Sequence record: OR670491 | DNA: 64,000 nucleotides | From: Escherichia phage vB_EcoM_JNE01 | Reading direction: 5' to 3' (one strand) | In this document: positions 808-63,906 of the stretch, one piece after another | How the letters are laid out: every line of letters starts with the position of its first letter | Position numbering within the stretch: the first letter of the stretch is position 1 | The notes under the pieces: generated by a model | Seen by the model: only the letters and a program-made list of their open reading frames with translations | What the model was told of the DNA's origin: nothing | Database searches by the model: none | Made by a program: the position numbers and the translations under genes

Positions 808-1267
808 CTTATATGAAGATATTAATGATGTTATTGATGTAGCATTATGGACTGTTTTCGAATACAGAACAGAAAACAAACACTGGTCTAATTGGTATAC
901 TAATGATAACCAAAAACTACTGCTAGGTCATGGTAATACCGTTGAGTGTCTTGCATTCACTCGTCATGGGGCAAGTGATGATATAAGGGATTGTTTTAAT
1001 ATACAAATATCACTACTTGGACAAGGTGTGTTGTATAAGATTGATGTTTATCATGATCGTTTATTTGTAGTGTCTGGTAGTGCTACCCGCATTGTATTAG
1101 GTTATGACATGAACCCAAGTGAAGCGGATTTGTTTATTGGTGATTTCGATAAAGACATTGATTGTGCAAGATACTTTCAATTAAGTACTTTGTATAGTTT
1201 ATGTAATATTAGTCATCGTGGATTAAAGAAGTTACAAAGTATTGCACGAAATTTAAATTCTGAATAA
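800..1267 (+). CDS. hypothetical protein
   Basis: 155-aa ORF, start overlaps the upstream gene end. Confidence 0.45.
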   Translation: MHDLYEDINDVIDVALWTVFEYRTENKHWSNWYTNDNQKLLLGHGNTVECLAFTRHGASDDIRDCFNIQISLLGQGVLYKIDVYHDRLFVVSGSATRIVLGYDMNPSEADLFIGDFDKDIDCARYFQLSTLYSLCNISHRGLKKLQSIARNLNSE

Positions 1268-1279
1268 CAGGAGAATATT

Positions 1280-23981: not shown

Positions 23982-24014
23982 GGGTTGACTTCGGTCAGCC
24001 CTTTTTGCTATAAT
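23982..24014 (+). terminator. composite terminator-promoter element
   Basis: GGGTTGAC-TTCG-GTCAGCCC-T5-gc-TATAAT (24009-24014). Confidence 0.65.
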
Positions 24015-30145: not shown

Positions 30146-30177
30146 GGGTTGACTTCGGTCAGCCCTTTTTGCTATAA
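30146..30177 (+). terminator. composite terminator-promoter element
   Basis: GGGTTGAC-TTCG-GTCAGCCC-T5-gc-TATAAT (30172-30177); 30 nt upstream of the denV ATG. Confidence 0.65.
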
Positions 30178-30206
30178 TACTTTCATCAAGACGAGAGGAT
30201 GAAAAC

Positions 30207-31036: not shown

Positions 31037-31068
31037 GGGTTGACTTCTGTCAGCCCTTTTTGCTATAA
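31037..31068 (+). terminator. composite terminator-promoter element
   Basis: GGGTTGAC-TTCT-GTCAGCCC-T5-gc-TATAAT. Confidence 0.6.
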
Positions 31069-31095
31069 TTATTTCATTAACTAAAGAGGTAATAC

Positions 31096-32757: not shown

Positions 32758-32789
32758 GGGTTGACACTAGTCAGCCCTTTTTGCTATAA
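32758..32789 (+). terminator. composite terminator-promoter element
   Basis: GGGTTGAC-ACTA-GTCAGCCC-T5-gc-TATAAT. Confidence 0.6.
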
Positions 32790-32818
32790 TCATTTCATCA
32801 ACTCAAGAGGATAAAGAC

Positions 32819-53735: not shown

Positions 53736-54202
53736 GTTGTACATAGGGTGAGGGAACGGCGGCAACTGTTCCTTAATCTCAGTATCATGTCGTGAGACAT
53801 TACGCAAGTTATATCCTCCTGTGCATAGTGCTGGTGGTTATCTCTTGAACCTCATTTTTTCTCGTGAACTAAACAGTACTGATATTAACAGAATGGTAGC
53901 AGTACTGATATTAATCTAATGCATTATGCCACCAGCTTGTGCTGGTGGATTCCCTCTAACAGTATTCAGTACTACATGATGGTCTTCATCCTCCTGGGGT
54001 AACATAGTGAAGGTTATGATGGCAGTACTGAATACTCCAAACTCAAGATGGATTAAGGGTGTAGTACTGACGGATTTTGGGTGTAGTTACCCTGGATGGA
54101 TTTTGGACGTAGATATGTCTAGCCCTCCAGAAGTCTGGAAGTAAAGATGGCTATCCATCTAGACGGCTAAACGGCTAGATTTCTGGATGGCTGGACGTTT
54201 GG

Positions 54203-54234
54203 ACGGCTAAACGGCTAAACGGCTAAACGGCTAA
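54203..54234. repeat. iteron-like tandem repeat (ACGGCTAA x4)
   Basis: Four perfect 8-bp units with degenerate copies and GGATGG/GGACG motifs on both sides. Confidence 0.6.
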
Positions 54235-54878
54235 ACGTCTGGATGTATGGATGGCTAAATCAAAATTTTATTTTGTTTTTTCCAATAGTTCCCCTACCGC
54301 GTGGGGATAGTTTCCCCGCAGTATCTGGTGTTAGATTTTTCTGAATCTGGAATCATTATCTTATAAACTGGGGGCAATGTCAACGGCCTGGACGGATATT
54401 TTTAAAAATTTTTTCAGTACTGAATTTTGGGCGTAACTATGCACCCGGTGGGCTTGAGTCTTTCTCGACTTGATGGAACTATTATACAGTACTGAAAAAA
54501 TAAAGCAATACCCTGGAAGCAAAAAAGTTTTAATTAATTTGCTTGCTATCCTGGGCCGGACTATGGTACTATATTTCAGTACTGAGAAAGTGCGTTTACC
54601 TGCTAGGGTGCGGGAGTGTATCCTTTTTTTATATCTTGAATTTTGGACGGATCTTCCCACCCCCTGGGGTATCCGCTTTCTCGCGTCTATGTAGTAATTA
54701 TACGCTTTTTCAGGATCAAGTCAATACCTAAAAACAAAATAATTGAAAATAATTTAACGCGTTTAAACGGCCCGTAACGCCCTGGAATGATTAGAATGGT
54801 GCAAATGTATAGCTTAGGTGTATTAATGCGTTAGAATGCGTCTGAGGCCGTTTTATGGGGTGTAGTAGTGATTTGGTT

Positions 54879-55046
54879 GATTCAGTACTGAATAATAGTA
54901 CTCCTATATAGAAAGATAGTTCCCCTGGATTGATTCAGTACTGAATGATAGTACTGAATAATAGTACTCCTATATAGAAAGATAGTTCCCCTGGATTGAT
55001 TCAGTACTGAATGATAGTACTGAATAATAGTTCCCCTATATAGAAA
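54879..55046. repeat. tandem direct repeats (unit 53-66 bp, about 2.5 copies)
   Basis: Unit GATTCAGTACTGAATGATAGTACTGAATAATAGTACTCCTATATAGAAAGATAGTTCCCCTGGATT, each copy carrying 2-3 AGTACT palindromes. Confidence 0.65.
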
Positions 55047-55079
55047 GAAAACTATTTTAAAAGTATTTGTAGAAAGTAC

Positions 55080-55139
55080 TTGCACAGTACTGATAAAAGC
55101 GTATAATGTTTTACATCGAGAGCGGGAACTCTTCCCGCT
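55080..55139 (+). promoter_or_regulatory. promoter / 5' stem-loop cassette
   Basis: TTGCAC, 16-nt spacer, TATAAT (55102-55107), gttttacatc, hairpin AGCGGGAA-ctc-TTCCCGCT (55121-55139). Confidence 0.6.
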
Positions 55140-55162
55140 ACACTTTAAGAGAGATTAATACG

Positions 55163-55525
55163 ATGGCGACTCAAATCACTAAAATCATTGCTAACCTGGT
55201 TAACTTCCGCGACGATATGAAAGATCTTCCGGCGGCAACGGTTAAAACTCACATTGACGCATACCGCGAACTGATTAAAATGCTGCCGCTTAAGCGTGAA
55301 CAATACGCCGCCACCGTGATGCTTGATGCGATGATCCATAAGATGATCGCCAGTGATTTAACGATGGCTTATCAGTATATGGGTGAATTGTTCGCGGTGT
55401 ATAGTAAACCAGTACCAGGAATGGAAAGTACAGAAGTATTACACGGTTTAAATTTAAAACAAGATGCATGGGATAATATGCCTCGTTTCCTGGTATGGGC
55501 TGACAGTGGCAAAATTTACGAATAA
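55163..55525 (+). CDS. hypothetical protein
   Basis: Internal ATG (frame +57) of track ORF 55106, downstream of the cassette hairpin. Confidence 0.5.
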   Translation: MATQITKIIANLVNFRDDMKDLPAATVKTHIDAYRELIKMLPLKREQYAATVMLDAMIHKMIASDLTMAYQYMGELFAVYSKPVPGMESTEVLHGLNLKQDAWDNMPRFLVWADSGKIYE

Positions 55526-55538
55526 GTTAAAAATTAGT

Positions 55539-55597
55539 TTGACAGTACTGAATAAAAGCGTATAATGTTTTACATCAGGTGGGGAATAGTTCCCCAC
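55539..55597 (+). promoter_or_regulatory. promoter / 5' stem-loop cassette
   Basis: TTGACA-N16-TATAAT; hairpin GTGGGGAA-tag-TTCCCCAC. Confidence 0.6.
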
Positions 55598-55617
55598 TAT
55601 ATAAGAGGATTAAAAAA

Positions 55618-55857
55618 ATGGCTAAATCAAAAATGTTCTTAGGTCACAAAAATAAAACTCATTGGAATGTAAGCCTTTGGATTAATAACGATGAGGGATT
55701 GTATCGGTTGGCCCAGGACTTTATTAACGATAGCACTAATCGCAATGATGCGGCCCGTCATATGATGTTATTTTTAGAACAGACTGGACAAGATAAAACA
55801 CCGGACGGATTCAAATATAGCACTACTGCGATCCGTGCGGCAATGGTAGGAATGTAA
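55618..55857 (+). CDS. hypothetical protein (paralog of 57659..57898)
   Basis: 79 aa; shared GHKNKTHWNVSLWINN ... TPDGFKYSTTAIRAAMVGM. Confidence 0.5.
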   Translation: MAKSKMFLGHKNKTHWNVSLWINNDEGLYRLAQDFINDSTNRNDAARHMMLFLEQTGQDKTPDGFKYSTTAIRAAMVGM

Positions 55858-55943
55858 TAGAATATATTTAAAGTACTATCATTTTTTTGCGATAGTACTT
55901 TATAATAGTGTTTTATTCATACACCAACGATAAGGGCAACAGC

Positions 55944-56210
55944 ATGAATATTAAGTATTTTGCGACGCGTGAACAAGCTCGGATCGCCGCTCGCCAGGAC
56001 GGGGCAACGTTTAAAGATATGGGCGTACAATCGGAACGTGGTAAACGTTGGGCCATTGTAAAGCGTAGTACCGCCAGATCATTACAGTACTGGTTAGCGG
56101 CCTTAAAAAGTCCCGATAGTGTATCGCGTCGAGTGGTAGAAATAAAGCTCGACCGAAAGGGCAACCGCGTGACCGTGTACCGTACTAAAAAGATAGCAGT
56201 ACTTGAATAA
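55944..56210 (+). CDS. hypothetical basic protein
   Basis: Internal ATG (frame +36) of track ORF 55908. Confidence 0.45.
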   Translation: MNIKYFATREQARIAARQDGATFKDMGVQSERGKRWAIVKRSTARSLQYWLAALKSPDSVSRRVVEIKLDRKGNRVTVYRTKKIAVLE

Positions 56211-56217
56211 AAAGTAC

Positions 56218-56276
56218 TTGCAAACTATGTTTAATGGCGTATAATGTTTTACATCGAGAGCGGGAACTCTTCCCGC
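56218..56276 (+). promoter_or_regulatory. promoter / 5' stem-loop cassette
   Basis: TTGCAA-N16-TATAAT; hairpin GCGGGAA-ctc-TTCCCGC. Confidence 0.6.
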
Positions 56277-56297
56277 CTATAACCTGGAGTAATAAAA

Positions 56298-56528
56298 ATG
56301 ACTAATATGTATATGACTGAAGTTAAAACCGTAAAAGATACTACCACGAATAAAACTACTTACTTACAGCGGATCTGCGGTGTATGGCAACGTATCAGCA
56401 AATCAAAGTACTTTAAATTAACATCATATGCAAATCGTTCGGATTCATTCAGTACTGAAATAAAAGGTAATAAAGTACACCAATACGGCACTTATTATTA
56501 TTACAGCCTGGACGCGATTGCAGTATAA
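56298..56528 (+). CDS. hypothetical protein
   Basis: 76-aa ORF with GGAG RBS. Confidence 0.45.
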   Translation: MTNMYMTEVKTVKDTTTNKTTYLQRICGVWQRISKSKYFKLTSYANRSDSFSTEIKGNKVHQYGTYYYYSLDAIAV

Positions 56529-56778
56529 GCAGTTTACAAATCTTTACAATTGCCGGTATTGACTTATTTTGTCAGTACTGGCATAATGTATTCATTGGCA
56601 GATAAGCCGTAGCCCATAGGGTGCGGGAGTGTATCTATAGAAAAATTAGTTTAGTATAGTTACAATTGTGCACCCGGTGGGTTAGCTGTTGTCATGGGGT
56701 ATATTATGCCAGTACTTGATAATTCTGTCAATACTTTTTTTTTACTATTCAGTACTGAAAACTATTTTTAAAAAGTAC

Positions 56779-56896
56779 TTGCAAACTATGTTTAAAGGCG
56801 TATAATGTTTTACATCAGGACGGGGAACGAAATAAGTAACTTCCCGTTAAGTAGCCCAGGAGTAAGGCACACGAAAAACTCCCCTGATAAAATAGT
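56779..56896 (+). promoter_or_regulatory. orphan promoter with ~90-nt structured leader (candidate small RNA)
   Basis: TTGCAA-N16-TATAAT (to 56806), then tacatcaggacggggaac...acgaaaaactcccctga with no ORF; a second promoter follows. Confidence 0.45.
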
Positions 56897-56924
56897 TTGA
56901 CAAATGTTTTTAAAAGCGTATAAT
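56897..56924 (+). promoter_or_regulatory. sigma70-type promoter
   Basis: TTGACA-N16-TATAAT, 32 nt upstream of the 56957 ATG. Confidence 0.55.
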
Positions 56925-56956
56925 ACTTACATCAACTACTGAATGAGGGTTACAAA

Positions 56957-57568
56957 ATGAAAACTATCACTACTACTACTTTCGTTATGGATTTTTCTGA
57001 ATTGAACGCAGAACAACAAACGTCAGCTATCGAACTGGTTCGGGATCGTGAGCGTTCATGTGAGGATAATTTCTTTGCTGAGGGCGTTATCGAGTACTAT
57101 AAAGAAACAGTACTACCAGAATACGGCATAGATGAAGCTGAATTGCAATACAGTGGTTTTTGGTCGCAAGGTGACGGTGCATCAATCAGTACTGACAGCG
57201 TGGACGCAGTGAAGTTTTTACGCAAGATTAAAGCGTTAACGAAATATCGTTCTATCCGTCACTTGTTGAATGAAGATGATTTGGCAATGAGTGTAGAACG
57301 TTCACACTCTCGCTACGCACACGAAAACACGGTAAGCGGGTACATTGAATCGGCTTACACTGATTTAACCGCAAAACAAGAAACGTTAGTTAATGAGCTT
57401 GAGGAACTACTCACTGATACTATTCGTGAATTGTCCCGCAAGTTGTACCGTGATTTAGAGAATGCATATGAGGATCAATTCACTACTGAAAACATTACGG
57501 CACTGATTGAGGGTAACGAATATCAATTCAATGTTATTGATGGCGTAGTGGAATCAATCGAATATTAA
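56957..57568 (+). CDS. hypothetical acidic protein
   Basis: 203-aa ORF with GAGGGT RBS. Confidence 0.5.
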   Translation: MKTITTTTFVMDFSELNAEQQTSAIELVRDRERSCEDNFFAEGVIEYYKETVLPEYGIDEAELQYSGFWSQGDGASISTDSVDAVKFLRKIKALTKYRSIRHLLNEDDLAMSVERSHSRYAHENTVSGYIESAYTDLTAKQETLVNELEELLTDTIRELSRKLYRDLENAYEDQFTTENITALIEGNEYQFNVIDGVVESIEY

Positions 57569-57580
57569 TTTAAAAAGTAC

Positions 57581-57640
57581 TTGCAAACTAAGTTTAAAAG
57601 CGTATAATACTTTATATCGAGGCGGGGAGTGGTTCCCCGC
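57581..57640 (+). promoter_or_regulatory. promoter / 5' stem-loop cassette
   Basis: TTGCAA-N16-TATAAT; hairpin GCGGGGA-gtggt-TCCCCGC. Confidence 0.6.
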
Positions 57641-57658
57641 TCAAACGAGGATTTAAAA

Positions 57659-57898
57659 ATGGCTAGTACTAAAACTTACAACGGACACAAAAACAAAACT
57701 CATTGGAATGTAAGCCTTTGGATTAATAACGGTGAGTCATTGTATCGGCTTGCTCAAAGTTGCATCGCACAAAGTAGAACTAAAGATATTGCTGCGGAAT
57801 GTATGTACCGCAGATTAAAAGCCAACGGTACTACTACAACGCCGGACGGCTTTAAGTATAGCACTACTGCGATCCGTGCTGCAATGGTTGGAATGTAA
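57659..57898 (+). CDS. hypothetical protein (paralog of 55618..55857)
   Basis: 79 aa sharing the GHKNKTHWNVSLWINN motif. Confidence 0.5.
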   Translation: MASTKTYNGHKNKTHWNVSLWINNGESLYRLAQSCIAQSRTKDIAAECMYRRLKANGTTTTPDGFKYSTTAIRAAMVGM

Positions 57899-57955
57899 TA
57901 TTCAGTACTGAGATAATGGCGGGTAATAGTTCCCGCCTTTACTGAGGGTTATCTA

Positions 57956-58216
57956 ATGAGTAAAGTAATTAGCTATACAGCACTAAGCAAGACATTATCT
58001 ATTAGCCAGTGCACCGATGGTTATTGGCTATTTGATGAAACGCGTGGCATGAATTTAGCGATGCGTGCAAAAACTGCTGAGGCGGCGTATATTCAAGCAC
58101 TGGAATACTACCAGGAACGTTTAAAGGAAGTAGAAGAAGATTATAAAAGCCTCAAAGCGAAAGTAGATCATTTCGTCGGTCAATTCAACGAGGAAGACGA
58201 CGACAAACAATATTGA
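57956..58216 (+). CDS. hypothetical protein
   Basis: 86-aa ORF preceded by hairpin GGCGGG...CCCGCC and GAGGGT. Confidence 0.45.
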   Translation: MSKVISYTALSKTLSISQCTDGYWLFDETRGMNLAMRAKTAEAAYIQALEYYQERLKEVEEDYKSLKAKVDHFVGQFNEEDDDKQY

Positions 58217-58224
58217 AAAAGTAC

Positions 58225-58283
58225 TTGCAATTAGTTTTCAGTACTGTATAATGGTTTACATCAAAGGGAGAAATGGTTCTCCC
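58225..58283 (+). promoter_or_regulatory. promoter / 5' stem-loop cassette
   Basis: TTGCAA-N16-TATAAT; hairpin GGGAGAA-atgg-TTCTCCC. Confidence 0.6.
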
Positions 58284-58302
58284 TGGTAATGAGGAAAATA
58301 AA

Positions 58303-58524
58303 ATGGCTAATATCACTACTCTTTCCCAACTGGAAGCACTGGTGAAATCTATGCGGGAACATGCCGACAAAATCGGCGTACAAGATCCAGCCGTTTGCTT
58401 CTGCGACGAATTGAATGATGATACCCTGGTAATAGCAGAAGTCCAGGACGTTTCTAACTATTCCTCGCGTTACACTGGCGGCGTAGCAAATAAAGGCGAC
58501 TTCTGTTTATACCTTACAAAATAA
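58303..58524 (+). CDS. hypothetical protein
   Basis: Internal ATG (frame +30) of track ORF 58273. Confidence 0.45.
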   Translation: MANITTLSQLEALVKSMREHADKIGVQDPAVCFCDELNDDTLVIAEVQDVSNYSSRYTGGVANKGDFCLYLTK

Positions 58525-58529
58525 CAACG

Positions 58530-58559
58530 CGGGGAGATAATAACTCCCCGTTACTTTTT
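58530..58559 (+). terminator. rho-independent terminator
   Basis: CGGGGAG-ataataa-CTCCCCG followed by TTACTTTTT. Confidence 0.6.
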
Positions 58560-58692
58560 CAGTACTGAATCATTTAATAGACGGATCTCGGCACCCGGTG
58601 GGTTAGTGACTGTTTCGTCTTGATGTAGTAATTATGCCAGTACTGGATGCACTTGTCAACAACTATTTTTCAAATACTTTTTATTAAAATAC

Positions 58693-58740
58693 TTGCAATT
58701 AGTTTTTAAACGCGTATAATGTTTTGCATAGGGGGAGCGG
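58693..58740 (+). promoter_or_regulatory. promoter / 5' stem-loop cassette
   Basis: TTGCAA-N16-TATAAT; short hairpin GGGGA-gcggt-TCCCC. Confidence 0.55.
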
Positions 58741-58767
58741 TTCCCCTGGTAACTAAGGAATAATAAA

Positions 58768-59004
58768 ATGCTTGAACAAATCAAATCAACGTCTGCGAAT
58801 GTAACGGGAACGGTATCACACTTTACTAGTGATGAATCGCGTGGTGTTCCTTATTGTGCTGTACATGTAAACACTGATGGCAACTACTGGTTTACGGTTT
58901 ACGGATCATATTCATTTGGACGGCCAGGGCATCAAAAAATTCTGGATAAAGTACAACCAACGGGTAAAAATATCACTGCCGAAATGTTTTATAAAAAATC
59001 ATAA
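58768..59004 (+). CDS. hypothetical protein
   Basis: 78-aa ORF. Confidence 0.45.
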   Translation: MLEQIKSTSANVTGTVSHFTSDESRGVPYCAVHVNTDGNYWFTVYGSYSFGRPGHQKILDKVQPTGKNITAEMFYKKS

Positions 59005-59009
59005 AGTAC

Positions 59010-59069
59010 TTGCAATTAGTTTTTAGTACTGTATAATATTTTACATCGCAAGGGGAAACGGTTTCCCCT
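59010..59069 (+). promoter_or_regulatory. promoter / 5' stem-loop cassette
   Basis: TTGCAA-N16-TATAAT; hairpin AGGGGAAA-cgg-TTTCCCCT. Confidence 0.6.
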
Positions 59070-59088
59070 GGTAACTAAGGATAATCAA

Positions 59089-59388
59089 ATGAAAGTTGCA
59101 ATCATCGCCCTGGCTTTATCTGTATCGTCTTTCGCTGTTAACGCTTCCGTTGATGTACCGCGTGAAAAATTCATTCAGTGCACTGTTGCAATGACTAACG
59201 AGGAAACGGCTGAGATTGTTACCAAATCCCTGGAACTGGCCCCTGCAATGTTTGCTAATGGCCCGTACCATGAAGAAGATGATCAGGGTAGCACGACCAT
59301 CTATTACGATGCAAAAAGTAAACGCGGTTCAGTTACTGTAATGGATACTGAGAAAGTTACATTCACGGGAGTAATTAATTGTTTTTAA
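59089..59388 (+). CDS. hypothetical secreted protein
   Basis: Signal-peptide-like MKVAIIALALSVSSFAVNA. Confidence 0.5.
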   Translation: MKVAIIALALSVSSFAVNASVDVPREKFIQCTVAMTNEETAEIVTKSLELAPAMFANGPYHEEDDQGSTTIYYDAKSKRGSVTVMDTEKVTFTGVINCF

Positions 59389-59405
59389 TGAAGTACTGAA
59401 TCATA

Positions 59406-59433
59406 AGCCCACTATAAGAAGTGGGCTTTTTTT
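59406..59433 (+). terminator. rho-independent terminator
   Basis: AGCCCAC-tataagaa-GTGGGCT + T7. Confidence 0.6.
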
Positions 59434-59475
59434 ATTGTAGTACTGAATACTTTAAAAATAGTTTTGAAATAGTAG

Positions 59476-59618
59476 TTGACATTACCAGGGAAAGGCGTAG
59501 AATGTATTACATCAGGACGGGGAACACTAAGTAGACCGCCAGTAAGTCGAACGAAAAACTGGACACGACCTGGAAACTTTGATAAACTAACTTACACTTT
59601 AATTGAGGAATTAAAAAA
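59476..59618 (+). promoter_or_regulatory. promoter with long structured leader (second copy of the 56807 leader motif)
   Basis: TTGACA-N16-TAGAAT, then tacatcaggacggggaac ... cgaacgaaaaactgg, 115-nt leader before ATG. Confidence 0.45.
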
Positions 59619-60098
59619 ATGGCAAATGTAAAATCATTCTTTAAAGCACTGGTATCTTCTGACGTATCTATCGCCGCTGAATTGCTGGCTGACCTGGATA
59701 ATGATACCATGAAAGCAGTACGCAATAATTTTAATATGGCGTACAGTGCAGCAAAAGAACTGCAAGCCAAAAAGGTAGCAGAACTGGAAGCGGCAAAGGC
59801 AGAACGTGAAGCAGAACTGCAAGCAACAATCGAAAGCATCCAGGCGGCGGTAAGTGGATTGGATATCGAGATCGTAACCGATATGGCACATAAAGCCCTA
59901 GCTGCAAAATACGGTGAAGTAAAAGCGGTTAAAGAAAAGAAATGGATTCAGGACCGCGTTAACGTAGTACTTGACAACGGGGAAGAATATCTTATTCCTG
60001 TACGCGGTAACTGCATTGCCGTAGTACTGGACGCGATTAACTCCAGTGGTATGACACGCGAGGAATGGATCGAAGCTCATCGCAAAGTTGAAGCATAA
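59619..60098 (+). CDS. hypothetical protein
   Basis: 159-aa ORF, Ala/Glu/Lys-rich central segment. Confidence 0.5.
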   Translation: MANVKSFFKALVSSDVSIAAELLADLDNDTMKAVRNNFNMAYSAAKELQAKKVAELEAAKAEREAELQATIESIQAAVSGLDIEIVTDMAHKALAAKYGEVKAVKEKKWIQDRVNVVLDNGEEYLIPVRGNCIAVVLDAINSSGMTREEWIEAHRKVEA

Positions 60099-60119
60099 CA
60101 ATAAAAGTACTGAATCACT

Positions 60120-60146
60120 AGCCCACCTTAAACGGTGGGCTTTTTT
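60120..60146 (+). terminator. rho-independent terminator
   Basis: AGCCCACC-ttaaac-GGTGGGCT + T6. Confidence 0.6.
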
Positions 60147-60300
60147 GTGTTTATCGTTTACCAGGCCACCAGCACCGCCTAGAAACGATTCTAACGCATT
60201 AAACTGATTATCTGATGCATTGCCCTAGCTGGTGGCGTTAAGGCTGTAAGAACGCGATTGAGAGCGTTTAAAGTATTTTGCAAAAAGTAATAAAAAGTAC

Positions 60301-60328
60301 TTGCACGATTAAGAGATTAGCGTATAAT
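60301..60328 (+). promoter_or_regulatory. sigma70-type promoter
   Basis: TTGCAC-N16-TATAAT with A-rich upstream tract. Confidence 0.5.
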
Positions 60329-60373
60329 TAATTACATCAAGGCAAGACACCTTAACTAACTGAGGATATAAAG

Positions 60374-60526
60374 ATGAATACTTATGACCTGGATTGTTTT
60401 ACTTTACAAGTAATGTCAGTATGCAGTAAGAAAGATTGGTCATCAAAGGAATTTAAAGCAGTTATCGCGTGTGCAAAACACGGCAAGACTATCAATGAAA
60501 CGGCATCAATCATTGATAAACTTTAA
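60374..60526 (+). CDS. hypothetical 50-aa protein
   Basis: MNTYDLDCFTLQVMSVCSKKDW... after GAGGA; not in track. Confidence 0.35.
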   Translation: MNTYDLDCFTLQVMSVCSKKDWSSKEFKAVIACAKHGKTINETASIIDKL

Positions 60527-60534
60527 AAAATAGT

Positions 60535-60563
60535 TTGACAATAGTTTTAAGTACTGGCATAAT
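60535..60563 (+). promoter_or_regulatory. sigma70-type promoter (class B, CATAAT -10)
   Basis: TTGACA, 17-nt spacer ending agtactgg, CATAAT. Confidence 0.5.
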
Positions 60564-60595
60564 ACATACATCAACTACTGAATAGGAATTAAAAA

Positions 60596-60823
60596 ATGGC
60601 TATTATCATTACTCGCGTATCTGGTACTACTGGCAACGAACAAGTAGTTGCAGTCATTACCAACAAGGAAGGTGCGGAATTGCAAAATGCAATGAATACC
60701 TGGGCCGTTAATGAGTTCGGTCAGTGGGCAAGTGTAGCATACATTGAAACCTATCAAGTGCCGTCGATTAGTTTAACTGATTTGGGCGTTGAGCGTATCC
60801 TTTGCCTGGATGAATTAAATTAA
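60596..60823 (+). CDS. hypothetical protein
   Basis: 75-aa ORF. Confidence 0.45.
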   Translation: MAIIITRVSGTTGNEQVVAVITNKEGAELQNAMNTWAVNEFGQWASVAYIETYQVPSISLTDLGVERILCLDELN

Positions 60824-60831
60824 AAAAGTAC

Positions 60832-60891
60832 TTGCAAAGTAAATCGAATAAAGTATAATACATTACATCAAGGGGAGAAATGGTTCTCCCC
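60832..60891 (+). promoter_or_regulatory. promoter / 5' stem-loop cassette
   Basis: TTGCAA-N16-TATAAT; hairpin GGGGAGAA-atgg-TTCTCCCC. Confidence 0.6.
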
Positions 60892-60908
60892 ACTACAAGG
60901 AAACTAAA

Positions 60909-61052
60909 ATGAAAACTTGTCAATGTGGTCATAAATCTATTACGGGTTTTAAGCGGGGCGTTGCTCTTTGCCAGTACCATTATAATTTACAAGTATGGGG
61001 TAAAGAATGGGCCGACCAGGTGGAAGCAGCAAAGAAAGCAAAAAGTAAGTAA
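60909..61052 (+). CDS. hypothetical 47-aa Cys-rich protein
   Basis: MKTCQCGHKSITGFKRGVALCQYHY...; not in track. Confidence 0.35.
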   Translation: MKTCQCGHKSITGFKRGVALCQYHYNLQVWGKEWADQVEAAKKAKSK

Positions 61053-61070
61053 AATATTATCACAGTACTA

Positions 61071-61099
61071 TTGACATAGTTTGATAGTACTGGCATAAT
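61071..61099 (+). promoter_or_regulatory. sigma70-type promoter (class B)
   Basis: TTGACA-N17-CATAAT. Confidence 0.5.
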
Positions 61100-61140
61100 A
61101 GATTTTATCAAGACAACATATTAATTTAAGGAATACAAAA

Positions 61141-61464
61141 ATGGCTAAAACTATCATTAACACCGTTTCCCTGGCTGCAATCCGTGCAATCAATGTTGAC
61201 GGTAAACGTTGGACTGATACATATGGCAATACTTATCATTCTTGTCATGTAAGCGTTGAACTGGATAACGGTTTGAATGATCTGGCGGTTGAATCATTTA
61301 CTTATGGCTATGAAGATGCATATCAACAAACGGCGTTAGATCTATTAAAGGAATCAGTAGACGGGCTTAATACTGATGAAACCTCCCTTACTCGTTTGTG
61401 CAATGATCTTAATATCCCGTTGCATTGTACTGTACAGAATGTTAAACGCAAAAAAGATCTTTAA
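61141..61464 (+). CDS. hypothetical protein
   Basis: 107-aa ORF, AAGGAA RBS. Confidence 0.5.
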   Translation: MAKTIINTVSLAAIRAINVDGKRWTDTYGNTYHSCHVSVELDNGLNDLAVESFTYGYEDAYQQTALDLLKESVDGLNTDETSLTRLCNDLNIPLHCTVQNVKRKKDL

Positions 61465-61544
61465 TTAGCTTTACTTTATGCAGATACTTTGATATAGTGT
61501 CTGCATAGGGGAAAGAAATTAAATTAACTTAAGAGGATCGTATA

Positions 61545-61814
61545 ATGAAAAATATCAGTACTTTAATCGATACAGGTACTCATGTTCGTCGGTCTATGGT
61601 TGCAACCAGTACTACAAAACAAGTACCAAGCGGTTATCTTGTATTTGTGCACGATGGTAAACTCCTGGAACGTTCAATCAATTTTGATGTTAAAAACAAT
61701 TGCCGTTTTATTATCTTTAAGCGTGAGCAATATAAAATTGATTTACCAGCAAAGCCCATAAGCGGGGCGTACAACGTGCAATCATTGTTTGAACGTCAAC
61801 CATACACCTATTAA
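61545..61814 (+). CDS. hypothetical protein
   Basis: 89-aa ORF, AGAGGA RBS; near-palindrome ATGCAGATACT...AGTGTCTGCAT upstream. Confidence 0.45.
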   Translation: MKNISTLIDTGTHVRRSMVATSTTKQVPSGYLVFVHDGKLLERSINFDVKNNCRFIIFKREQYKIDLPAKPISGAYNVQSLFERQPYTY

Positions 61815-61865
61815 TCAAAACATCGTTAGCGGTCGATTTAGGCCGCGTATATTGGGGATTATACC

Positions 61866-62138
61866 ATGAACGTTAATCAAGTACTGAATGAGATCGAAAG
61901 CATCATTAAACCAATGAAACGCATTGATGCTATGTTAACACCGGAAGAATGCCGCCTTTATGAGCGTTACAGCGTCGAACAAGTCCAGGCAATGGCTATG
62001 GCTACCCCAGCCGTTAAACCGCCTGAGAATGCGTTACAGGACGTTACAGGGGATTATATCATCAATCCAGTACTAGGGAAGATGGCTGCAATCACCGAAG
62101 ATCAACAAGATTACTTAAGTCAGTACTTAAAAGGTTAA
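61866..62138 (+). CDS. hypothetical protein
   Basis: 90-aa ORF. Confidence 0.45.
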   Translation: MNVNQVLNEIESIIKPMKRIDAMLTPEECRLYERYSVEQVQAMAMATPAVKPPENALQDVTGDYIINPVLGKMAAITEDQQDYLSQYLKG

Positions 62139-62143
62139 TTAAT

Positions 62144-62353
62144 ATGCTTACTGTACAGGATAAGATCGACATCTTAAAGGTTAATATGTATGTGATTGAT
62201 GCAGTACCTGGTAAAGTATTTGCATACGATGACAGTACTGTAAGCGATTTCTACTATAGCCAGGACGTGGGGGATCTTTCTGTACAGTCGGTTATTGAAA
62301 ACGTAGTTAATGCAGCGTATGAGCATTTACTTTCAAATAGTACTTGCAATTAG
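62144..62353 (+). CDS. hypothetical protein
   Basis: 69-aa ORF; its last codons and stop lie inside the downstream promoter -35 (AGTACTTGCAATTAG). Confidence 0.45.
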   Translation: MLTVQDKIDILKVNMYVIDAVPGKVFAYDDSTVSDFYYSQDVGDLSVQSVIENVVNAAYEHLLSNSTCN

Positions 62354-62403
62354 TTTTTAAACGCGTATAATGTTTTACATGAAGGGGAGAAATGATTCTC
62401 CCC
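62344..62403 (+). promoter_or_regulatory. promoter / 5' stem-loop cassette
   Basis: TTGCAA-N16-TATAAT; hairpin GGGGAGAA-atga-TTCTCCCC. Confidence 0.6.
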
Positions 62404-62422
62404 ACTAATTAAGGAATATGAA

Positions 62423-62569
62423 ATGAAAGCATCAAAAAAGAGTAATACTAAGAAAGCACGTTCAACCTTAGATGGGGTATTCCCTTTACGTTTCGTTGAT
62501 GAAGTGGTGTCCTACCCGCCGGGCCTTACTCCTGAGATGGTAGAAAGTTTGCGTAAATCTAAAAAATAG
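62423..62569 (+). CDS. hypothetical 48-aa basic protein
   Basis: MKASKKSNTKKARSTLDGVFPLRF...; not in track. Confidence 0.35.
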   Translation: MKASKKSNTKKARSTLDGVFPLRFVDEVVSYPPGLTPEMVESLRKSKK

Positions 62570-62572
62570 TAC

Positions 62573-62632
62573 TTGCAATTAGTTTTTAGTACTGTATAAT
62601 AGTTTACATGAAGGGGAGAAATGATTCTCCCC
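62573..62632 (+). promoter_or_regulatory. promoter / 5' stem-loop cassette
   Basis: TTGCAA-N16-TATAAT; hairpin GGGGAGAA-atga-TTCTCCCC. Confidence 0.6.
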
Positions 62633-62650
62633 AATAACAGGAGAATCAAA

Positions 62651-62803
62651 ATGAAACAATACAACGCTCGGTTTGATGTTACTATCGGTAACGGCAAAGG
62701 TCAATTCTCTTTCAGTACTCGCAAAAGTTATACAGAAAACTTCCTGCGTAATTGTGCACTGACCGCCGCTCAAATTAAACATTACTTTCAGGCTAAAAAA
62801 TGA
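62651..62803 (+). CDS. hypothetical 50-aa protein
   Basis: Internal ATG (frame +30) of track ORF 62621, after AGGAG. Confidence 0.4.
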   Translation: MKQYNARFDVTIGNGKGQFSFSTRKSYTENFLRNCALTAAQIKHYFQAKK

Positions 62804-62889
62804 AAACATTAGCTTACTATAGTTCGGCCCTGGTCGGTGCATTGATCGCGGCGTTGTTAGTAACCTATCTATTCTTTATGGTGATTTAA
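62800..62889 (+). CDS. possible 29-aa hydrophobic micro-protein
   Basis: MKTLAYYSSALVGALIAALLVTYLFFMVI; ATGA overlap with the upstream stop. Confidence 0.25.
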   Translation: MKTLAYYSSALVGALIAALLVTYLFFMVI

Positions 62890-63033
62890 ATGAATCCAAC
62901 AGGTTTAAACTATAAAAGTTGTTCGGCGTTTACGAAAGCAAATAAAGCGAATGCACGTAAAGCGAAAGTACAAGAATACATCAAGCAAGGCATGACGCGA
63001 AAGGCGGCGATTCTAAAAGCTAAAAATAAATGA
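62890..63033 (+). CDS. hypothetical 47-aa basic protein
   Basis: MNPTGLNYKSCSAFTKANKANARKAKVQEY...; start directly after the upstream stop. Confidence 0.3.
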   Translation: MNPTGLNYKSCSAFTKANKANARKAKVQEYIKQGMTRKAAILKAKNK

Positions 63034-63040
63034 AAAAAGT

Positions 63041-63071
63041 GGTTGACTCCGGTCAGCCATTTTGCTATTAT
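63041..63071 (+). terminator. composite terminator-promoter element
   Basis: GGTTGAC-TCCG-GTCAGCC-ATTTTGC-TATTAT. Confidence 0.5.
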
Positions 63072-63175
63072 ATATTCATTGAGAGATAGCTCACTAGCCC
63101 ACAGGGTGCATAAGTGTATCTATTATATGAGTATTGAGTACTGAAAACTATTTTAAAAGTATTTGTAGAAAGTAC

Positions 63176-63234
63176 TTGCAAACTATCTCAATAAGCGTAT
63201 AATGTTTTACATCGAAAGGGGAAACGGTTTCCCC
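63176..63234 (+). promoter_or_regulatory. promoter / 5' stem-loop cassette
   Basis: TTGCAA-N16-TATAAT (63198-63203); hairpin GGGGAAAC / GTTTCCCC (63218-63234). Confidence 0.6.
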
Positions 63235-63254
63235 TGATAATAAGGAAACAAATC

Positions 63255-63596
63255 ATGACTATCTCAATTGCTCAATCTAACTTTGAAAACGAAATCATCG
63301 CCCAGGCACTGCGTTTAAATGATGGTCGGGCCGAAATTAATTACGGTTTCAATTCAGGCGGTTGTGAAAAATATCAGTACTTTGTAACGGCTGATGGCGG
63401 TGTCCTGGGTATCAATACAGTTATTGTAAACATCCAAAAAATTAATTTCAATGATCCAGACGATAGCCAGTTTTACATCACTGGCGTAGACGTGAACTAT
63501 GAGGATGACTCACTAACTGATGATCACACTGGTGAGAAGTTAGAGAGTGCATACGGTGAAGATGATTATCAGTCAGTACCGGAAGATTTTGAATAA
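63255..63596 (+). CDS. hypothetical acidic protein
   Basis: 113-aa ORF, AAGGAAA RBS. Confidence 0.5.
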   Translation: MTISIAQSNFENEIIAQALRLNDGRAEINYGFNSGGCEKYQYFVTADGGVLGINTVIVNIQKINFNDPDDSQFYITGVDVNYEDDSLTDDHTGEKLESAYGEDDYQSVPEDFE

Positions 63597-63611
63597 TATT
63601 AAAAAAATAGT

Positions 63612-63671
63612 TTGACAATAGATTATAGTACTGTATAATAGTTTACATCAAGGGGAGAAAAACTTCTCCCC
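63612..63671 (+). promoter_or_regulatory. promoter / 5' stem-loop cassette
   Basis: TTGACA-N16-TATAAT; hairpin GGGGAGAA-aaac-TTCTCCCC. Confidence 0.6.
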
Positions 63672-63693
63672 ACTAACAGAGAGAGAAAACAAA

Positions 63694-63906
63694 ATGGCTA
63701 ATATCTGCACTGTACTGAAAAATGCAAAACAAGTTTTATTTTCTGATCACGATCATTTAAACAAGGATATTACTGGCGTTCGGAATATCAAAGATGTAAA
63801 AAGTGTTATGGGTATCTATTGCAATATGAAACGTGTTGGAACGTTCGGCGACAAAGTACTATACCAGGCAGGGGATTACAATTTTACACTGACTATCATT
63901 AACTAA
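63694..63906 (+). CDS. hypothetical protein
   Basis: 70-aa ORF. Confidence 0.45.
   Translation: MANICTVLKNAKQVLFSDHDHLNKDITGVRNIKDVKSVMGIYCNMKRVGTFGDKVLYQAGDYNFTLTIIN

Follow-up and report, generated by a model that had tools for sequence, protein, structure and literature searches.

The nut sites of phage lambda and the put sites of phage HK022 both act as promoter-proximal, ORF-less sense-strand RNA in early leaders (ORF, open reading frame), and put RNA consists of two stem-loops and holds no pseudoknot. Phage T7 is among the best studied of all phages, though the stretch between its early promoters A1 and A2 has so far been treated as a spacer or as a piece of an 'internalisation signal' fragment. 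In T4-type phages, promoter/stem-loop cassettes known as PeSL place repeated early promoters between small ORFs in a variable region (PMC2839356, PMC4122927). Here we describe a structured leader RNA that stands twice in a 64,000-nucleotide (nt) stretch of Escherichia phage vB_EcoM_JNE01 (record OR670491), hereafter the window, at 56814-56888 (copy 1) and at 59511-59583 (copy 2), and whose core also occupies the A1-A2 stretch of T7.

Two leaders with a common pseudoknot

A first reading of the window, made from its letters alone (the sequence-only reading), had pointed to a motif in two copies after promoters at 56779 and 59476 and had called it a conserved structured leader. Both statements hold. 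The 18-mer TACATCAGGACGGGGAAC occurs at exactly two sites, 56811-56828 and 59508-59525, where shuffled sequences give an expectation of 0, and both promoters are strong and of the sigma70 type; the part common to the two copies is a pseudoknot RNA, supported by covariation and found across several unrelated phage lineages. A search for the motif elsewhere, which that reading had recommended, returned the same two sites in the 64 kb, whether it was made with the exact 18-mer, with the looser pattern TAAGTAG-N7-10-TAAG-N4-ACGAAA (0 expected) or with a covariance model of the core, which gives 58.5 bits to copy 2, 53.4 bits to copy 1 and 8.6 bits to the next match. In pairwise alignment copy 2 lacks 17 nt, namely the loop and the 3' arm of a hairpin present in copy 1; downstream of this gap both copies have a common 33-nt block, TAAGTAG.CC...AGTAAG.C..ACGAAAAACT, and the core common to the two leaders is 35 nt long (UAAGUAG..UAAG..ACGAAAAAC). 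Both copies lie on the sense strand in a promoter-proximal position and carry (U/C)AAGUA, UAA and A(C/A)GAA(A/C)A in fixed order. UAAGUAG begins about 35 nt after the inferred transcription start in copy 1, about 18 nt after it in copy 2 and 53 nt after it in T7.

We counted base pairs for an H-type pseudoknot in an alignment of 22 distinct core sequences (alignment A2), with 500 shuffles and slid partners as controls. Stem S1 of the model pairs the G of UAAGUAG and two bases with the G of the second UAAG and two bases, while stem S2, modelled with 5 bp in A2, encloses UAAG..ACGAAAAA. Pairs are formed in 96.6% of cells, against 77.6 ± 2.1% after shuffling (0/500 shuffles reach the observed value), and partners that are slid pair in only 13-37%. 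Compensatory changes are seen in five of the eight core pairs. The middle pair of S1 is A-U in 16 cores, C-G in 3, U-A in 3 and unpaired in 0; S2 takes the forms CCUG/CAGG, CUUG/CAAG, CCAG/CUGG and GGAG/CUCC, to which phage EJP2, outside A2, adds AUCCUG/CAGGAU as read from its sequence. The pairwise alignment and consensus folding that the sequence-only reading had also recommended bear it out, since both window copies pair fully in S1 and S2 of the common H-type pseudoknot. As a null set we used roughly 250 chance matches to a loosened DNA pattern, from among the matches listed for metagenome and genome collections, almost all of which were noise: one of them is able to form S1 and S2 together, against 42 of 42 phage-leader matches. 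The G-U pairs are compatible only with folding of the + strand; it is thus the sense RNA that folds. These counts show the core to be a compact H-type pseudoknot with an S1 of 3 bp, an S2 of 4-5 bp, an A-rich third loop ACGAAAA(A) and invariant unpaired UAAGUA and UAA; in all, some 17 unpaired nucleotides hardly vary among phages that are otherwise unrelated, with only the host order in common. The parts of the two leaders and their surroundings, with helices from minimum free energy (MFE) folds where so marked, are as follows.

Copy 1
56779-56806, + strand: promoter P1 of copy 1, TTGCAA-16-TATAAT, with a start inferred at 56812-56814; it belongs to a family with about 15 others at 55-64 kb
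56814-56819, + strand: helix P0, 5' arm AUCAGG, partner of 56883-56888 (MFE fold)
56820-56847, + strand: hairpin P1, ACGGGGAA / UUCCCGU with a 13-nt loop, ending directly 5' of UAAGUAG (MFE fold)
56848-56882, + strand: pseudoknot core (alignment A2 and pair counts; covariance model score as above)
56848-56853, 56863-56865 and 56869-56878: single strands of the core, namely the joiner UAAGUA, the loop UAA and the A-rich loop ACACGAAAAA
56854-56856 with 56866-56868: stem S1, GCC with GGC
56859-56862 with 56879-56882: stem S2, GGAG with CUCC
56883-56888, + strand: helix P0, 3' arm CCUGAU, contiguous with the 3' arm of S2 (MFE fold)
56897-56924, + strand: promoter P2, TTGACA-16-TATAAT, 12/12 matches, directly 3' of copy 1 and driving the next ORF
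56957-57568, + strand: ORF of 203 amino acids (aa) after copy 1 and promoter P2, phrog_5162, function not assigned

Copy 2
59405-59428: terminator-like site before the copy 2 promoter
59476-59503, + strand: promoter of copy 2, TTGACA-16-TAGAAT, with a start inferred at 59509-59511
59511-59527, + strand: 5' segment AUCAGGACGGGGAACAC, matching the 5' segment of copy 1 with the hairpin loop and 3' arm missing ('type 2')
59528-59562, + strand: pseudoknot core (alignment A2 and pair counts; covariance model score as above)
59528-59533, 59543-59545 and 59549-59558: single strands of the core, namely UAAGUA, the loop UAA and the A-rich loop GAACGAAAAA
59534-59536 with 59546-59548: stem S1, GAC with GUC
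59539-59542 with 59559-59562: stem S2, CCAG with CUGG
59513-59516 with 59569-59572, or 59511-59516 with 59578-59583: options for pairing of the tail, CAGG with CCUG or AUCAGG with UUUGAU
59563-59618, + strand: rest of the 5' untranslated region (UTR), with the ribosome-binding site GAGGA at 59605-59609
59619-60098, + strand: ORF of 159 aa after copy 2, phrog_27871, function not assigned, with a terminator-like site next at 60120-60141

Comparison of homologues also suggests that the knot is closed by a further helix, formed by an upstream segment with the tail directly 3' of S2; this helix covaries in T7-likes and is predicted by folding in the window. In alignment A3, which comprises 16 T7-like sequences under a four-helix model, the upstream hairpin has a loop of 6 nt whose partner is the six-base tail after S2, as GUCAA/UUGAC in T7 and as GAUUAG/CUAAUC, GUCGGU/ACCGAC or GUCAUC/GAUGAC in others; Kosakonia phage Kc318, outside A3, reads GUCAAG/CUUGAC. 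The T7 tail UUGAC is the -35 hexamer of A2. This model is 93.1% paired with compensatory changes in 11 of 18 pairs (0/500 shuffles), against 12-35% for slid controls, and the T7-like fold thereby reads as a nested double pseudoknot.

For copy 1 and for the phages muut and Munch, pseudoknot-free MFE folding recovered hairpin P1 and S2 independently, together with the closing helix P0, in which the 5' flank AUCAGG (about +3 to +8) pairs with CCUGAU directly after S2. In T7, Munch, copy 1 and muut, only 1-3 nt stay unpaired at the folded 5' end of such structures. A loop-tail helix of the T7 type was considered for copy 1 and its relatives and set aside in favour of P0, as by eye it could be drawn only as the mismatched, non-covarying CGAAAUA/UAGUUUG. 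The hairpin that ends directly 5' of UAAGUAG in copy 1 varies in length and sequence among homologues (a G-U pair in phage 121Q, GGGAUG/CAUUCC in Munch, CCGG/CCGG in T7). It is absent from copy 2 and the other type-2 members, 121Q, G17, CMSTMSU, EJP2, Hallingskeid and UPEC06, where its 3' arm is missing. Type-2 copies appear, from their sequences, to pair a 5' GACG(G) with (C)CGUC after the knot; the window copy has a mismatch in this pairing and offers CAGG/CCUG as an alternative.

The sequence-only reading had seen no ORF in the first copy and a promoter right behind it, and we agree: TTGACA-16-TATAAT follows directly at 56897, and the only small + strand ORF over the motif has 31 aa (56805-56900; an ORF of 20 aa lies on the - strand). 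The ATG of this 31-aa ORF falls within the -10 hexamer and hence precedes the transcription start, and homologues of the region carry 1-3-nt indels that are not multiples of three (the hairpin measures 25-28 nt), which together rule it out as a coding gene. Over the match to copy 1, certain GenBank records of related phages carry a 'hypothetical protein'; it is most likely this 31-aa ORF and almost certainly a misannotation of the RNA motif.

The sequence-only reading had offered two alternatives, a riboregulatory leader or a small RNA (sRNA). The analysis brought up no expression platform, ligand or partner for a riboregulator, and an sRNA is not supported as a stand-alone gene. The promoter is there, but we found no terminator-like site between the end of the copy (56889) and the ORF at 56957, nor any in the homologues read, and the layout promoter-motif-promoter is recurrent. 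As the layout recurs and no terminator intervenes, transcripts from promoter P1 should read into the downstream gene. Copy 1 forms the upstream half of a recurrent tandem-promoter module, promoter P1-motif-promoter P2-gene, and is probably no stand-alone sRNA; a processed leader fragment is possible. Copy 2 had been described as a 115-nt 5' UTR of the gene at 59619; it is indeed the 5' UTR of that gene, with a length of about 108-110 nt. This UTR holds no convincing second promoter, only a 9/12 promoter match at 59560-59588, and the unit is bracketed by the terminator-like sites at 59405-59428 and 60120-60141 (a terminator is also annotated in G17). Copy 2 is the motif without the 3' half of the hairpin, serving as the 5' UTR of an apparently monocistronic unit. 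Pfam and PHROGs searches with the downstream and neighbouring ORFs returned only families of unknown function, and thus no functional clue.

Spread of the motif among phages

The 3.7 kb around both leaders is 86-95% identical to Asteriusvirus jumbo coliphages (Turkey5, PBECO4, 121Q and others), and by this comparison the window comes from an Asteriusvirus-like jumbo coliphage. Beyond that group, BLAST with the 90-nt copy 1 leader found 89-91% identity in phages of about 145 kb from other lineages, namely muut, outra and EmilieFrey (Justusliebigvirus) and A73, W70 and A7_1 (Vequintavirinae). Between the window phage and these two groups the motif is about 90% identical, against 56-80% for the flanking 60 nt. 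In 121Q the flanks are 95-100% identical and the motif is a variant. Positions 25-59 of copy 2 match positions 553-587 of phiA1122, a T7-like Yersinia phage, at 91% identity, and the middle of this copy is 82-89% identical to sites in UPEC06 and in the jumbo phages Munch, 7t3, fENko-Kae01 and Hallingskeid.

The same core follows sigma70-type promoters in muut, Munch, T7 and phiA1122, about 30 T7-like contigs of IMG/VR, Hallingskeid, UPEC06, A7_1, CMSTMSU and G17; it is further present in 121Q, EJP2, 7t3, outra, A73, UE-S1, Kayfunavirus and Cronosvirus, and in Erwinia jumbo phages too. When IMG/VR was scanned with a pattern, T7 itself came up, with the match at nt 551 between A1 and A2, as did T3-like contigs and many others of 38-45 kb. 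The 67-nt T7 version of the motif matched 486 phage records, at one place per record, with Escherichia (225), Klebsiella (83), Salmonella (37) and Yersinia (20) as hosts, besides Enterobacter, Citrobacter, Shigella, Serratia and Kosakonia; most of the matches listed for this version have no annotated feature underneath. The motif is thus a family common to T7-group phages, where it lies in the A1 leader, and to several further lineages of enterobacterial phages. In T7-likes its place is about 550 nt from the left end of the genome, and the homologous sites of phage vB_Ec-M-J are found 3.7 and 6.7 kb from the left end, within a direct terminal repeat of 21.5 kb.

The layout recurs as well: a sigma70-type promoter, 18-55 nt, usually a hairpin, UAAGUAG, and about 30 nt to ACGAAAA(A)C and four pairing bases. 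In the loci that we read, a second promoter very often comes next after the motif, giving the order promoter-motif-promoter in T7 and phiA1122 (A1-motif-A2), muut, Munch, Hallingskeid, UPEC06, A7_1 and copy 1. The genes downstream of this module differ from phage to phage.

In E. coli genomes and plasmids the motif leaves no clear trace. BLAST of copy 1 gave no match in 5,426 E. coli genomes and, in 72,556 plasmids, a single weak partial match of 24 nt (E = 9), which argues against a prophage or host element and against an obvious antitoxin mimic. Rfam 15 gave 0 matches over the whole window at gathering threshold, and the copy 1 region and T7 480-940, searched at E up to 10, stayed at chance level (at most 17.5 bits, vs thresholds of 36-167). 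The RNA element described here was not found in the searchable literature, whether by keywords or by exact DNA and RNA sequence; older literature lies partly outside this coverage, and prior mention is possible. The sequence itself occurs in papers only as part of promoter fragments. Resemblances to the E. coli rrn leader, to the GTPase-centre sequence of 23S rRNA, to pistol linkers and to ToxI were considered; none is convincing, and none is claimed. The structured RNA family is real and well supported, and apparently unannotated.

Possible roles of the leader RNA

Does the motif act on the transcripts that carry it, or elsewhere? Both sites carry the same kind of structured RNA, made from the sense strand in the first ~100 nt of transcripts from host sigma70 early promoters; that this RNA exists, how it folds and where it occurs are what the evidence supports. 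On balance we lean towards the former view, a cis-acting 5' domain, with a mechanism at which we can only guess. The RNA would fold co-transcriptionally into a rigid 5'-proximal domain that buries the 5' end, displays the conserved unpaired bases and acts in cis on early transcripts. It might be a barrier to attack or scanning that depends on the 5' end (RppH, RNase E) or to Rho loading, or else a docking site for a host factor common to Enterobacterales. We favour a cis-acting domain because the motif always lies in the first ~100 nt of a strong early transcript of host polymerase, whose 5' end is mostly base-paired.

Several points weigh against this preference. The T7 motif is situated upstream of A2 and A3, so that transcripts from these promoters do not contain it, and the T7 leader is cut off by RNase III at R0.3, so that a simple role as mRNA stabiliser cannot hold for T7. 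That unpaired bases are so strongly conserved between distant phages speaks more for a specific partner or ligand than for a passive barrier. As to the fold, S1 is short (3 bp, with one covarying pair), P0 is invariant among type-1 copies and so has no covariation support, copy 2, which lacks the hairpin, gives a weak fold by itself (z = -0.8), and the members of A2 and A3 were partly chosen via a pattern that fixes the unpaired motifs and leaves the paired columns free.

The A2 and A3 transcripts without the motif, the removal by RNase III and the near-invariant unpaired bases together keep in view a leader RNA acting in trans, which we consider rather unlikely. As a decoy, sponge or aptamer, such an RNA would be a bulk early product, released by processing (by RNase III at R0.3 in T7, by RNase E elsewhere) before any phage protein, and would bind and neutralise a protein, RNA or small molecule of the host; possible targets include a nuclease, a toxin, an RNA chaperone and a defence signal. 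The function of the motif seems independent of the mRNA body in view of the eight promoter-motif-promoter loci named above, where it lies upstream of the second promoter; its left-end location in T7-likes and, within the terminal repeat, in Asteriusvirus speaks for this reading too, as does the near-invariance of bases among phages with the host order in common. A trans-acting RNA is harder to reconcile with the lack of a terminator or defined 3' end, and with copy 2 and the IMG/VR contig L027, which carry the motif as an ordinary 5' UTR; the searches of E. coli genomes and plasmids, with one weak partial plasmid match, give no sign of host or antitoxin RNA mimicry. We give less weight still to the idea that the motif acts on RNA polymerase during transcription, as a put-like processive antiterminator or within a Nus site of the nut or rrn type. 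In this case the polymerase or Nus factors would be bound by the nascent pseudoknot, and complexes from promoter P1 would become resistant to pausing, Rho or terminators. Like put and nut, the motif is a promoter-proximal, ORF-less, sense-strand RNA of an early leader, and an rrn-type boxA lies downstream of it in four cases only: a perfect boxA CGCTCTTTAACAA stands roughly 25-70 nt after the motif in L027 (4113-4200) and in Kc318 (locus L303), and T7 and phiA1122 have a boxA about 230 nt downstream of the motif, after A3. In some lineages boxA near the motif may thus point to a functional link with the loading of Nus factors. In the window, the boxA search with (G/C)GCTCTTTAACAA gave no match with <2 mismatches and 12 loose matches where 8.3 are expected; this is chance level, and a nut site is ruled out here. 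A put-like antiterminator is unlikely also in view of the pseudoknot fold, which is not the two stem-loops of put, of the position ahead of A2 and A3 instead of behind all the promoters, and of the strong terminator-like site right after the copy 2 gene with another before its promoter, an odd design for an antiterminator.

A size of 35-60 nt, nested pseudoknots and invariant joining nucleotides are typical of ligand-sensing aptamers and self-cleaving ribozymes (preQ1, SAM-II, fluoride, twister, pistol), and a new class of either kind could be at hand; we think this quite improbable, since no family of Rfam 15 is matched by copy 1 or by T7 even at E up to 10, no dinucleotide stands out as a conserved candidate for cleavage and no expression platform is conserved, the downstream part being a promoter, a spacer or boxA depending on the phage. 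It is very improbable indeed that the motif has no RNA function and is a DNA-level signal, such as an UP element or protein site for the next promoter, or owes its spread to plain common ancestry, as DNA of promoter cassettes that were recently exchanged by PeSL-like shuffling. The A-tract and tail of T7-likes do overlap the upstream region and the -35 hexamer of A2, the surroundings in the window are a mosaic of promoter cassettes with indels between relatives, and the variant motif of 121Q between nearly identical flanks suggests recombination. A duplex DNA site would not be expected to show compensatory changes in four helices or strand-specific G-U pairs, and the motif is better conserved across families than the promoters that flank it. 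An UP element for promoter P2 was rejected on spacing, as the distance from the A-tract to the next -35 hexamer varies from 6 to >40 nt, and neither copy 2 nor L027 has a second promoter.

More tentatively, in a proposal that may well prove wrong, the motif would be a new class of phage RNA, a nested-pseudoknot device for immediate-early takeover or counter-defence that binds a host factor or small molecule or cleaves itself. If true, an RNA-only device made by host polymerase in the first seconds would be common to T7-likes, jumbo groups and coliphages of about 145 kb, with T7 as a direct system of study. Whatever its mode of action, the A1-A2 stretch of T7 encodes a covarying nested-pseudoknot RNA that has spread to unrelated jumbo and mid-size coliphages, and such a spread suggests that an early non-coding RNA of lytic phages has been selected for its function. 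Protection of transcripts, control of host polymerase or Rho and neutralisation of a host factor are candidate roles. With so small an element (about 60-75 nt) and the easy genetics of T7, a direct test is feasible. The motif also corrects the 31-aa 'hypothetical protein' annotations and accounts for the recurrent layout of promoter, gap and promoter.

The promoter array and known systems

The two leaders lie in an array of near-identical sigma70-type promoters on the + strand at 55-64 kb, with the pattern AAAAAGTACTTGCAA..GCGTATAAT..TTTTACATC. About 15 promoter cassettes (AAAAAGTACTTGCAA..TATAAT..TTTTACATC) can be recognised at 55070-63700 (+), each upstream of a small ORF, for example at 57581-57661, 58225-58305, 59010-59090 and 62344-62424 (+). 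Behind most array promoters stands a short hairpin, GGGGA..UCCCC, with a ribosome-binding site and the small ORF next; the motif-bearing units use the same promoter family, but the pseudoknot domain replaces the simple hairpin. Relatives are distinguished in this region by cassette-sized indels, and their gene content varies too. Two paralogous small genes, at 55614-55859 and 57655-57900, are 82-89% identical in DNA over about 250 nt and sit in separate promoter cassettes, which indicates duplication within the array; the second matches Pfam DUF7249.

Other repeats accompany the array. Just upstream of it, near the left genome end expected from vB_Ec-M-J, 54130-54260 and 54884-55015 hold 8-bp units arrayed in tandem (GGACGGCT / AAACGGCT / GGATGGCT) and a perfect tandem duplication of 66 bp, which may be related to the terminus or to packaging. 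A 12-bp palindrome TTCAGTACTGAA, or its core AGTACT, is repeated between genes (for example at 56449-56460, 56750-56761, 57901-57912, 58559-58570 and 54880-55030), often right after stop codons. Promoter spacers (CAGTACTGTATAAT, AGTACTGGCATAAT) contain it as well, and it may serve for protein binding or as a signal for recombination. Farther away, a terminator-promoter module AAAGGGTTGACTTCGGTCAGCCCTTTTTGCTATAAT occurs four times (23985-24014, 30149-30178, 31040-31069 and 32761-32790), with the -35 hexamer inside a GC hairpin that precedes a T-run and the -10 hexamer just beyond.

On the minus strand, four sigma70-type promoters lead into short ORF-less transcripts (58520-58659, 56590-56731, 54590-54724 and 54375-54508) with a conserved core ..CCCACCGGGUG.. 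between complementary arms. The transcript at 58.6 kb runs into a bidirectional terminator at 58529-58551 and is a candidate sRNA of about 95 nt; the one at 56.6 kb converges with a + strand promoter at 56559-56587. The same CCCACCGGGUG-type module is found in Munch (locus L003, about 1150-1275, minus strand), just upstream of the unit of promoter P1 and motif. This module has no Rfam match, and a tRNA/tmRNA scan of the 64-kb window found none.

With its early promoters, short GC hairpins, small ORFs and variable gene content, the array at 55-64 kb resembles PeSL cassettes. The motif differs from these in being far more than a stem-loop, in its covarying helices and in its conservation in the T7 group, which has no cassette arrays. 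Its likeness to HK022 put lies in a structured, ORF-less, promoter-proximal RNA on the sense strand of a phage early leader made by host polymerase. It differs from put in having a hairpin and a pseudoknot, and put is not known to resemble it in sequence; terminators bracket the copy 2 unit, and the motif lies upstream of further promoters. ToxI-like type III antitoxin RNAs and phage pseudo-ToxI are likewise short pseudoknotted RNAs, of a kind that a phage could use against its host, but the motif is not tandemly repeated, has no toxin gene next to it and no established sequence resemblance to them.

In its geometry the core recalls the frameshift knots of luteoviruses and the preQ1 and SAM-II aptamers, with two short stems, a 1-nt first loop and an A-rich third loop, which in the model would be positioned for the minor groove of S1. 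It departs from them in that there is no ORF to frameshift, no Rfam match and no expression platform, and that an extra helix encloses the knot. The closest likeness is to the A1-A2 segment of the T7 group (T7 nt ~534-595), which has the same motif of hairpin, UAAGUAG, S1, S2 and ACGAAAAAC between the first and the next promoters for E. coli RNA polymerase. The two differ in how the knot is closed: in T7-likes the hairpin loop pairs with the tail, whereas in copy 1 the 5' flank of the hairpin, AUCAGG, is predicted to do so instead, and copy 2 is hairpin-less.

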